64,000 bases of DNA from Thermoproteota archaeon. Lineage in GTDB: Archaea; Korarchaeota; Korarchaeia; Korarchaeales; Korarchaeaceae. A program made the translations under genes and the position numbers. The stretch's first letter is position 1. The number at the start of each line of letters is the position of its first letter. Below are positions 25,814 through 27,290 of the stretch, piece after piece. The stretch lies in NCBI GenBank assembly GCA_027491435.1, contig JAOZFG010000035.1, positions 94,393 to 158,392 on the forward strand, in the 5' to 3' direction. The notes under the pieces were generated by a model. The model made no database searches, was not told where the DNA came from, and saw only the letters and a list, made by a program, of their open reading frames with translations.

Positions 25814-27095
25814 GGACTTGCTTGTACCCCTCTAGGTCGAGGAGACCATGTCCTGAGTAGTTAAATAGGATCACCTTCTCTTTACCATCTTCTTTAGCTT
25901 TTAAGGCCTCATCTATGGCTGCCTTTACGGCATGAGCTGTCTCAGGAGCTGGTATTAGCCCCTCAACTTTAGCAAAAAGCGATGCTGCCTTGAAGACGTC
26001 CTCCTGCGGGTAAGCCACTGATCTTATCACCCCCTTGTTCTTCAGCAGGCTGACGGTGGGGGCCGCTCCGTGGTACCTGAGCCCGCCCGCGTGTATGGGC
26101 GGAGGAACGAACTTATGGCCTAAGGTGTACATTTTTATCAAGGGGGTCGTCTCGGCCGTGTCCCCGAAGTCGTACCTGTATTCCCCGTTGGTAAGGGAAG
26201 GTGAAGCTGTGGGCTCCACCGCTACCACATCGTAGTTATCCCTGCCCTCAAGTATGTCCCTTATGAACGGGAAGACTAGCCCGGCGAAGTTGCTACCCCC
26301 TCCCACGCTTCCTATTAGGACGTCTGGCTTTTCGTCAATTGCTTCCATCTGCTTCTTAGCCTCAATCCCTATGACGGTCTGATGGAGTAAGACGTGATTC
26401 AGCACACTGCCCAGAGCGTACTTAGTCTTCTCGTCCTTTAACGCTGCCTCTATGGCTTCGCTTATCGCTATCCCCAGGGATCCCGGGTGTTCTGGATCCT
26501 CTTTTAAGAACTTCCTACCTACCTCAGTTAGCTCGCTGGGAGAGGGGACTACGTTAGCCCCGTAGAGCTTCATCACGTACTTCCTGTAGGGCTTCTGCAT
26601 GTAGGATACCCTGACCATGAAGACTAAGGCTTCAAGCCCGTTCATGGCCGTGGCGTAAGAGAGGGCGCTTCCCCACTGACCAGCTCCCGTCTCGGTGGTC
26701 AGCCTCTCCAGCCCCTCTTTAGAAGCGTAGTAGGCCTGAGCCAGCGCTGTGTTTAGCTTGTGGCTCCCGGTAGGGGACAAATCCTCCCTCTTGAAGTATA
26801 TCTTTGCTGGCGTTCTCAGGTACTCCTCCAACCTCTTAGCCCTATACAAGGGAGTTGGCCTGCCTATTCTTAAGTAAAGCTCCCTTAGCTCGTCAGGTAT
26901 TCTGATCTCCTTCTCTTTTGAGAACTCTTGGTCAACGCACTCCTTCACGAAGAGGGGGTAGAATGCCTCGGGTCCTAATGGCTCCTTGGTAGCGGGGTGC
27001 AACGGGGGCGGCAGGTCAGGCAGGTCAGCCACGATATTGTACCAGAACCTGGGAACTTCATCCTTTGGAAGGTCCACTCTGAGGGCTCCGGTCAT
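25800..27095 (-). CDS. trpB2: Tryptophan synthase beta chain, TrpB2 type
   Basis: SPTGSHK PLP lysine, [32 protein letters not shown]-terminus. Confidence 0.95.
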
Positions 27096-27290
27096 AGGAC
27101 CACCTCCAGACGCTTCAAAGTCGACAGCTGCCCTTCTCCTGAAGGAGAGTTTGCTGCGGTCGTCCTAGGCTCCTTAAAGAGTAGGGCCTGCATCAGGGAG
27201 AGGAGCTCAGGCAGAAAGCCAAACTAGATCCCCCACATAGGACACCTCCTGGGTGCGTTGCACTACGCACCTCTGTTTTCTTTAAAAAGT
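27096..27290 (-). promoter_or_regulatory. trpB2 leader: TATA box, palindrome, Met-Trp minigene and anti-RBS element
   Basis: TTTTTAAA (27281-27288); GGTGCGT-N6-ACGCACC (27252-27271); AGGAGGTG RBS (27243-27250); TAGGACGACC (27158-27167) complementary to the trpB2 RBS/start. Confidence 0.65.
27224..27238 (-). CDS. Leader minigene M-W-G-I-stop
   Basis: AGGAGGTG-tcct-ATG TGG GGG ATC TAG, 128 nt upstream of trpB2. Confidence 0.6.
   Translation of the reverse strand: MWGI

Follow-up and report, generated by a model that had tools for sequence, protein, structure and literature searches.

A conserved tryptophan-codon leader upstream of archaeal trpB2 as a candidate tryptophan sensor acting through a +1 frameshift

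The gene trpB2 encodes a stand-alone TrpB-like enzyme, and in the archaeal DNA analysed here it is preceded by a short minigene that holds a single tryptophan (Trp) codon. The question raised by this locus is how the translation of such a minigene could convey the supply of tryptophan to a gene that begins further downstream. The locus lies on the minus strand of a 64,000-nucleotide (nt) stretch of contig JAOZFG010000035.1 (positions 94,393 to 158,392; Thermoproteota archaeon, Korarchaeota lineage, assembly GCA_027491435.1). This whole stretch is hereafter called the window, and all coordinates are window positions (Table 1). A preliminary description of the leader proposed an open reading frame (ORF) encoding MWGI, in which the position of the ribosome on the Trp codon would switch alternative hairpins and, with them, access to the ribosome-binding site of trpB2. 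The idea of a Trp-codon leader that controls trpB2 was retained, as a minigene with a Trp codon, served by a Shine-Dalgarno (SD) sequence, is conserved; the proposed frame and the hairpin mechanism were not. Most plausibly, the promoter-proximal minigene is a sensor of Trp supply that governs the access of ribosomes to trpB2. We assign a probability of roughly 0.6 to the reading, drawn from sequence comparison, that it acts through a programmed +1 frameshift controlled by Trp-tRNA and through translational coupling, rather than through alternative hairpins.

The trpB2 loci of relatives were gathered and their upstream regions were lined up. The collection held 43 genomes of the window's phylum, of which 35 trpB2 loci were examined, and the site described below was present in 33 of them. 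The TATA box, the SD sequence, the ATG-TGG minigene, the 128-nt gap between the stop of the MWGI ORF and the trpB2 ATG (27095), and trpB2 itself were all located where the preliminary description had placed them. The MWGI ORF was not conserved as the meaningful minigene, given that it occurred in only four of the 33 leaders of the phylum. The ATGTGGGGGATC form was found only in the window, L019, L152 and L153, and the other leaders read ATGGGGGAT, without an ORF of the MWGI type. Owing to the two extra bases of ATGTGGGGGATC in the window, the conserved frame starts at the GTG at 27236 and MWGI falls in the +1 frame; the TAG that ends it is conserved and shuts the +1 frame immediately 5' of the candidate shift site. 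The GTG as the start in the window is supported by loci L150 and L151 of the sister genus g2, in which a GTG is the sole start at an SD-appropriate spacing. Minigenes of the window's genus read MGDLVWL or MGDLVWP from an ATG, and their stop varies between TGA, TAG and TAA. All 20 same-genus loci with upstream DNA carried an A/T box, an SD sequence and the block ATGGGGGATYTAGTTTGGC, which was invariant apart from one synonymous C/T difference. The A/T box, the equivalent of the window's TTTTTAAA, lay ~45–50 nt 5' of the minigene start in each of these leaders.

In termination-reinitiation, the stop of an upstream ORF overlaps or abuts the start of the downstream gene. This arrangement was found in all 20 same-genus loci. 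TGG was in frame 0 with trpB2 in every locus, and its distance from the trpB2 start took eight values between 87 and 144 nt, every one a multiple of three. The zero frame reached a stop two to four codons past TGG and the +2 frame after six to nine codons; the +1 frame was free of stops for 29–47 codons (30–48 in a second count) and closed at a stop overlapping the trpB2 start (20/20). The stops between TGG and the trpB2 start numbered 2–6 in frame 0, 1–4 in frame +2 and 0 in frame +1, with three, two and none, respectively, in the window's spacer. Relative to the trpB2 start, the +1 stop lay at +1 (ATGA) in 13 loci and at +4 in the other seven. The spacers themselves have drifted. Loci L006 and L028 differed at 40 of 123 nt (15, 12 and 13 in the first, second and third codon positions), and L017 and L018 differed at 52 of 108 nt (16, 20 and 16). 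As this drift shows no codon-position bias, selection does not act on the peptide, and only the openness and the phase of the frame are conserved. On its 5' side, the +1 frame was closed one codon before the site by the conserved TAG.

The site was also found outside the window's genus, at the 5' end of a longer +1 ORF. This was the case in 11 loci, namely all five loci of g2, one of g3, one of g4, three of g5 and one of the two trpB2 copies of f3, with site variants such as ATGGGGGATCTAGTTTGG, ATGGGTGACCATCTTTGG and ATGGGTGGTTTACTTTGG. The +1 ORF of these sister lineages measured ~145–165 amino acids (aa) and was SerK/SbnI-like (NF053625, E-values of 1e-16 to 1e-21), with a weak match to ParB_N. 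When read codon by codon, L019 and L021 contained neither an ATG nor an SD-preceded start before the conserved SerK-like domain; L023 contained one ATG, one codon before the domain and without an SD. The SerK-like ORF ended at ATGA, TTGA or GTGA of trpB2 in most loci (ATGA or TTGA in L019 and L021–L023), and the arrangement was looser in L024 and L154, where 12 and 7 nt separated the stop from the trpB2 start. In L025 the leader was absent and the SerK-like gene had an ordinary ATG. Differences by codon position were 3, 6, 4 and 8, 5, 6 in the ~30-codon linker, without third-position bias, and 0, 2, 21 and 5, 3, 13 in the SerK-like domain, where third positions dominated. In family f4 the leader was of the spacer type, with minigenes beginning MRDNVWP (L029) and MMRDRVWL (L030). 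The +1 frame of L029 was 45 codons long and stopped 5 nt before the extrapolated trpB2 start, and that of L030 was 58 codons long and stopped 26 nt before it. The layout of the site also fits in L047, from a record titled as a metagenome-assembled genome of Micrarchaeota.

A SerK/SbnI-like gene of the ParB fold, ~130–165 aa in length, was observed directly 5' of trpB2 and overlapping it in L019, L021–L025 and L150–L155. This pairing suggests a two-gene salvage module for indole and serine, and the comparison with the window further suggests that the window's genus lost the SerK-like gene and keeps the open conduit alone. We take TrpB2 enzymes to use O-phosphoserine, which would explain a SerK-like partner. 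SerK is a documented archaeal serine kinase (extract of PMC5120207).

The candidate shift site of the window was invariant, apart from one synonymous C/T difference, in the 20 same-genus leaders, and its layout recurred in at least four other lineages. In all lineages the P-site codon ended in TT and the next base was T, as in sites of the prfB type. The variants were GTT-T in the window's genus, g2 and f4, CTT-T in L022, L024, L154 and L047, and TTT-T in the Thermococcales-like order described below. The A-site codon was TGG in all sites of all lineages, and tRNA-Trp would thus be the tRNA that becomes limiting. The +1 codon at the window site is GGC. Across lineages, the zero frame stopped 1–13 codons past TGG, and the +1 frame was open for 15–160 codons, either to the trpB2 start or through the SerK-like gene.

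SD-like elements can be evaluated by their pairing with the 3' end of the 16S rRNA, which read GGAUCACCUCCC in the genus, CGAUCACCUCCU in the Thermococcales-like order and GGAUCACCUCCU in f4. The genus tail was taken from two same-genus genomes, the window's genome having no assembled 16S. The SD-like element of the window site gave −11.3 kcal/mol against a background mean of −4.5, which placed it in the top 2.3%. Over all sites, the 14 nt before the P-site codon gave −7 to −15 kcal/mol (top 0–15%), where genomic values averaged −4.5 and reached −10.0 at the 5th percentile; the spacing was ambiguous between pairing registers. The free triplet varied at all three positions. The codon 5' of it was GAT in every copy of the same genus, f4 and the first Thermococcales sites that kept Asp, with GAC only in g5; in variants, Asp was replaced by Gly, Ala, Glu, Tyr or Ser, and the G-richness and the T-run persisted. 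Later Thermococcales sites carried GCT, GGT and TAT variants, which keep the G-richness and not Asp. The near-invariance of GAT, together with a G-richness that outlasts Asp, points to an SD-like RNA element and not to an arrest peptide. A nascent-peptide arrest of the TnaC type was rejected, since Asp is substituted and conservation at the amino-acid level was not found. Transcriptional slippage was rejected because the window's genus has a T3 run only, and a −1 shift because the +2 frame closes within six to nine codons.

The same motif was found in series in a Thermococcales-like order (a presumed assignment), in which 47 of 61 genomes carried trpB2 and 31 loci were examined. In most of these loci the first minigene read M-x-x-R-S-[DE]-[CR]-[FL]-W, with codons 2 and 3 free and the stop position variable. 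One or two further copies of the motif followed, each consisting of a G-rich word, three free bases, TTT and TGG, and each lying in the +1 frame of the copy before it. The TGG-TGG gaps were 55, 58, 61 or 64 nt and then 25, 28 or 31 nt, all equal to 1 modulo 3 in the usual layout. When a +1 shift was simulated at each site, the final frame met no stop before the TGA of ATGA in any of the 20 cascades computed, and tracing back from the ATGA stop reached at least one site in 28 of the 31 loci; L125 had no leader. Three +1 shifts in L136 (G048) land in the trpB2 frame with no stop between. L139 (G063) has a single site, whose +1 frame coincides with the TrpB2 ORF, and this ORF lacks an ATG. These two loci could represent genuine frameshift-dependent TrpB2 or assembly errors. 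As a separate observation, a fourth, strongly conserved block lies ~20–60 nt before the trpB2 start in the Thermococcales leaders L026 and L118–L144 (CACGCTC, ATTCCCTC, TTTGGGA); CCC and GGG within it could form a small hairpin, and the final +1 frame reads through the block.

The specificity of the layout was assessed by several controls. In the window's genome, the configuration occurred at two of 781 SD-preceded gene starts, those of trpB2 and, inside gatD, upstream of gatE; the +2 control on the same starts gave four. The pattern GGNGAYNNNGTNTGGC occurred at four places in this genome, one of which is a leader, the present one. An exact 18-mer search of metagenome contigs returned 25 matches, of which 10 preceded trpB2. 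In all 10 the zero frame stopped within 12 nt and the +1 frame stayed open for 91–493 nt, compared with a +1 frame that closed at a median of 19 nt (range 4–175) in the 14 evaluable unrelated matches. A generic detector applied to 87 other trpB2 loci, including those of more distant relatives, scored +1 hits and +2 control hits in 17 loci each, and the genuine hits were same-genus duplicates and L047 only. The equal counts indicate that the layout is lineage-specific and not general to the regions upstream of trpB2. A loose site pattern occurred at control rates in five Thermococcales genomes, except for paired copies at the trpB2 leader in three of the five. A 'WIW' minigene in front of a Thermoplasmata trpB2 was discarded, as it proved to be the C-terminus of the upstream gene. 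Separately, a leader peptide of classical appearance with three consecutive Trp residues (MTHHFTYNRWWWHFKSEGS, followed by a stop) was observed upstream of the bacterial trpB2 of L041, a Bacteroidales record.

The comparative evidence for a leader built on a +1 frameshift at a Trp codon is strong as regards its anatomy and its selection, and from it we infer frameshifting, control by Trp-tRNA and a raised synthesis of TrpB2. Ribosomes would initiate at the SD-served minigene, at the GTG at 27236 in the window and at an ATG in most relatives, and five codons on they would hold GTT in the P site and the sole Trp codon in the A site. When charged tRNA-Trp is ample, TGG would be decoded and, after a further two to four codons, the ribosome would terminate at a stop that lies more than 100 nt 5' of trpB2. 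A shortage of charged tRNA-Trp would leave the A site empty, and either the peptidyl-tRNA would slip +1 onto TTT or Gly-tRNA would read GGC. Across lineages, the P-site tRNA would be that of Val, Leu or Phe on NTT, and the +1 codon GGN. The G-rich SD-like element located 3 nt 5' of the P-site codon probably holds or strains the ribosome, as in the bacterial release factor 2 gene. The shifted ribosome would translate the +1 spacer, or the SerK-like gene, would terminate at the TGA overlapping the trpB2 ATG and would then reinitiate. Translation of the conduit may also melt local structure and shield the transcript from factor-dependent termination, and sites in series would multiply the dependence on Trp-tRNA.

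RNA refolding is the main alternative to a change of frame. According to the preliminary description, a ribosome paused at the Trp codon would re-pair the RNA and so free or mask the trpB2 SD without any frameshift. The conserved SD-served minigene with its Trp codon is compatible with this, and the pairing on which it draws is present in the window: TAGGACGACC (27167–27158) is complementary at nine of ten positions to GGTGGTCCTA (27104–27095) and nearly complementary to GGTGTCCTA (27246–27238), so that it can pair with either SD region, and the minimum free energy (MFE) structure uses the pairing with the minigene SD region. The 128-nt spacer had been called structured. The 183-nt leader folds no better than shuffled sequence: its MFE was −65.1 kcal/mol, dinucleotide shuffles averaged −66.8 ± 4.7 (z = +0.36), and of 200 shuffles 132 folded as well as the leader. 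The covarying stems that refolding would call for were not seen, as RNAalifold returned 0 conserved pairs in nine same-genus leaders, for which the coordinates of the relatives were approximate. The pairing probability of the trpB2 SD at 60 °C was 0.54–0.83 in 13 leaders and 0.45–0.96 in composition-shuffled spacers; at least 13% of 30 spacer shuffles paired the SD equally in 12 of the 13 leaders, and none did so in L020. The TAGGACGAC element recurred in only one of the other 19 same-genus leaders (L007). The alternative hairpins were therefore neither conserved nor more stable than expected by chance. Well outside chance expectation are other properties of this stretch, namely the conserved minigene that overlaps MWGI in another frame and its phase with trpB2. 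Refolding also leaves the open +1 frame, the spacers in multiples of three, the stop-start overlap and the SerK-like ORF joined in +1 without explanation, and we regard it as unlikely.

Two related classes of leader were rejected on the same data. A leader-peptide transcription attenuator requires mutually exclusive hairpins, a terminator among them, and the 0 conserved pairs, the z of +0.36 and the lack of a terminator spoke against these: a scan for terminator-like sites with a U-run found none on the minus strand at the leader. The run of regulatory codons typical of such attenuators was also absent, as each minigene has one TGG and the two to three TGG codons of Thermococcales lie in successive frames. 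A switch of the ermC type, in which the ribosome-binding site is sequestered, was rejected because no conserved helix occluding the SD was found and the SD pairing equalled that of shuffled spacers in 12 of 13 leaders. The consensus fold of 14 Thermococcales leaders contained a weak six-pair helix outside the SD (−5.9 kcal/mol). Rfam returned two sub-threshold chance hits only for the window region and none for five related loci.

The remaining alternatives accept the anatomy and explain it differently. If no recoding occurs, the +1 stretch would be a separate small ORF, or the 5' part of a SerK-like gene, with an unconventional or internal start, and trpB2 would be coupled to it constitutively with the Trp codon incidental. 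Sporadic in-frame ATG, GTG or TTG codons do occur in the +1 spacers, five of them near an SD-like word, and GTG codons in the +1 frame are present within site 1 of Thermococcales and after the minigene ATG in L024 and L154. These candidate starts are scattered, however, without positional conservation, L016 has none, and the GTG in Thermococcales site 1 abuts its SD-like word with zero spacing. The +1 frame is open right from the site and not from a start codon, and no reason would be left for the G-rich element on the 5' side, the T-run and the invariant TGG that five lineages share, which makes this explanation rather unlikely. A frameshift at a fixed ratio, giving a low and constant flow of ribosomes to the SerK-like protein and TrpB2 without control by Trp-tRNA, would have the same anatomy, and SD-like stimulators alone can drive shifts at a set ratio (PMC8211752). 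It is nevertheless improbable in view of the A-site TGG in every site of every lineage and of served genes that make tryptophan; the two or three serial sites of Thermococcales likewise suit a steep response better than a fixed ratio. Finally, the conserved 16–18 nt block could be the binding site of a regulatory protein or RNA, at the DNA or RNA level, with the ORF features as by-products. The conservation of third codon positions in the block, its repetition two to three times in Thermococcales leaders and the fourth Thermococcales block, which the frameshift does not explain, would agree with this. A binding site predicts neither frame relations that persist across 87–501 nt of drifting sequence nor the flanking of every copy by start and stop codons, and no Rfam match was found; we consider it highly improbable.

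Several points weigh against the frameshift sensor itself. The strong SD in front of trpB2 is normally spaced and could support independent translation of the gene, and a conserved structure that represses trpB2 was not found by the SD-pairing test, RNAalifold or the Thermococcales consensus fold. In one register, the spacing of the SD-like element is near that used in initiation, and a prfB-like 'strain' effect is uncertain. The re-pairing of the GTT-decoding tRNA on TTT is imperfect at the first position, and the CTT and TTT codons of other lineages fit better. The ATGA at Thermococcales trpB2 starts follows from the conservation of a Met-Lys N-terminus. Dinucleotide shuffling left the +1 frame open with a probability of 0.03–0.54 per spacer (0.17 for the window), statistics that are indicative only, as the genomes are related and not independent; multiplied together they overstate the significance because of shared ancestry. 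Mbf1, which archaea carry and which may counteract such shifts, is reported to suppress the frameshifting of stalled ribosomes in yeast (extract of PMC6301793), and frameshifting at the leader might be constitutive rather than controlled by Trp.

Table 1. Coordinates of the leader and trpB2 features in the window.
Feature	Position	Strand	Basis or remark
TATA-like box TTTTTAAA	27288–27281	−	Read from the sequence; assigned as promoter of the leader-trpB2 transcript
6-bp hairpin (GGTGCG, 8-nt loop, CGCACC)	27271–27252	−	Around the expected 5' end of the transcript
SD sequence AGGAGGTG of the minigene	27250–27243	−	4 nt from ATG, 6 nt from the in-frame GTG
ORF of the preliminary description, ATG TGG GGG ATC TAG (MWGI-stop)	27238–27224	−	+1 frame of the conserved minigene
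Conserved-frame minigene, GTG to TGA, (M)GDLVWLSA-stop	27236–27207	−	Alignment with relatives; stop at 27209–27207
Candidate +1 shift site GGGGGATCTAGTTTGGC	27234–27218	−	SD-like G-run and AT, free 3-nt spacer, GTT (P site), TGG (A site), then C
Sole Trp codon TGG, proposed 'hungry' A-site codon	27221–27219	−	Present in every site found
+1 open stretch, 43 codons and TGA	27223–27092	−	TGA overlaps the trpB2 ATG (ATGA); no SD-preceded start
SD sequence GGAGGTG of trpB2	27107–27101	−	Inside the +1 open stretch; −21.9 kcal/mol
trpB2, stand-alone TrpB-like pyridoxal phosphate enzyme, 431 aa	27095–25800	−	ATG at 27095

Transcription would be expected to start ~25 nt past the TATA box. The hairpin near the expected 5' end of the transcript may stabilise that end; L012, L013 and the L003 group carry comparable hairpins there, and a terminator-like flag on it was raised for the plus strand only. 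The minigene SD pairs with the genus 16S tail at −17.6 kcal/mol. The trpB2 product matched Pfam PALP (1e-40), NCBIfam NF009057 (696.6 bits) and TIGR01415 (682.3 bits), and was the only TrpB-family match in the window's genome. TrpA, IGPS and SerK gave zero matches in this genome, which is 99.5% complete. Given the absence of TrpA and IGPS matches, TrpB2 stands alone and presumably forms tryptophan from indole, and the organism probably cannot synthesise tryptophan de novo.

Further observations concern the surroundings of the locus. The 3' ends of trpB2 and of a convergent aconitase-X gene (24407–25813, plus strand) overlap by 14 nt (25800–25813). Directly upstream of the leader promoter lies an 87-aa zinc-ribbon ORF (27378–27641, minus strand); its LysW-like matches are weak (Pfam, 6.3e-07), and its C-terminal tail is very acidic. 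The palindromic hexamer TGTACA was observed beside the trpB2 TATA box or just 5' of it, sometimes flanking both sides, in L003, L005, L006, L007 and L009 of the same genus and in L027, L030, L053, L066, L067, L084 and L097 of other archaea; the window reads TGAACG at this position. The operators of TrpY ('TRP boxes') presumably resemble TGTACA. A transcriptional operator and a frameshift leader seem to be combined in some genomes.

The proposed frameshifting can be compared with that of prfB, the bacterial gene of release factor 2, in which a short zero-frame ORF stops soon after the site and the functional product lies in +1. The P-site codon of prfB has TT as its last two bases and a T after them, decoding of the A site is slow when the decoder is scarce, and an SD-like element lies a few nucleotides 5'. 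The trpB2 leader shares the early zero-frame stop, the open +1 frame and the P-site codon; its A-site codon would be decoded slowly when charged tRNA-Trp is scarce, and a candidate SD-like element of ambiguous spacing lies 5' of the site. In g2–g5, L139 and L136 an enzyme likewise appears to need the shift. In prfB the +1 frameshift serves autoregulation (extract of PMC5009743). The slow codon in the trpB2 leader differs in being a sense codon, for Trp, and the signal would be charged tRNA instead of a release factor. In the window's genus, moreover, the +1 frame encodes a conduit peptide that is not conserved, and the output would be the downstream gene, reached through a stop-start overlap; the hosts are archaeal, and frameshifting is here deduced from sequence. 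In ketolide-induced frameshifting at ermC, a proportion of the leader ribosomes similarly shift, translate into the spacer and permit downstream initiation (extract of PMC5009743). The trigger there is an antibiotic, and the effect is to unfold a defined hairpin that sequesters the ribosome-binding site, whereas at trpB2 the trigger would be a shortage of Trp-tRNA. The trpB2 leaders showed no conserved hairpin, and their shifted frame runs exactly to the start of the downstream gene.

Attenuation at trpL and pheL also uses a short leader ORF that reports the supply of the downstream pathway's amino acid through the speed of codon decoding. The trpB2 leader differs in its single Trp codon, in the lack of alternative or terminator hairpins with a U-run on this strand and in its proposed read-out, a change of frame; frameshifting at pheL was judged incidental (extract of PMC5009743). 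In 'hungry codon' frameshifting, an A site left empty under amino-acid limitation lets the P-site tRNA slip (extracts of PMC8211752 and PMC5009743), and frameshifting at Trp codons under Trp depletion has been described in human cells (extract of PMC13751296). This is known as an error phenomenon, whereas the trpB2 leader would be a conserved and selected switch; on hungry-codon frameshifting with a starvation-specific function, a 2016 review stated that 'no examples are known' (extract of PMC5009743). The ATGA, TTGA or GTGA overlap of the +1 ORF with trpB2 resembles termination-reinitiation coupling, with the difference that the upstream ORF is apparently entered by frameshift only.

For archaea, a 2021 review of recoding listed a single cellular example, the −1 shift of fucA1, besides one +1 case from a virus and a suggested case in Mg-chelatase (PMC8211752). 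A 2014 transcriptome paper noted no direct in vivo evidence for archaeal attenuators or riboswitches (extract of PMC4247193), and in a 2019 paper little was known of Trp regulation beyond TrpY and Tar (extract of PMC6737238). The preliminary description referred to a proposed Met-Trp minigene before trpY, of which the extract of PMC6737238, a paper on TrpY, makes no mention. Full-text searching, with subscription journals and supplements outside its scope, found no description of such a leader, and none appears in the extracts of PMC4247193, PMC5316973, PMC6737238 or the recoding reviews PMC8211752 and PMC5009743.

A wider proposal, which we hold to be evenly poised between right and wrong, is that archaea of at least two phyla use a 'frameshift attenuator'. 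In this proposal, a shortage of Trp-tRNA would trigger a +1 shift at an SD-assisted NTT-TGG; the shifted ribosomes alone would make the SerK-like enzyme (TrpB2 in L139 and L136) and would elsewhere be passed to trpB2 at the stop-start. The serial sites of Thermococcales would give a steep, multiplicative response. The leader would then be the first selected hungry-codon sensor of an amino acid and, among cellular genes of archaea, the first case of regulatory +1 recoding.

The post-transcriptional sensing of amino-acid supply is almost unknown in archaea, and the leader bears on that gap. Through it, serine phosphorylation is connected with the TrpB2-based salvage of indole in organisms without the remaining trp pathway. 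If the proposed mechanism is true, it would account for SerK-like and TrpB2 genes that look 'start-less' and that annotation pipelines will call wrongly. The leader would further represent a compact, portable and directly testable sensor of tRNA charging, which could be tested in the genetically tractable Thermococcus.

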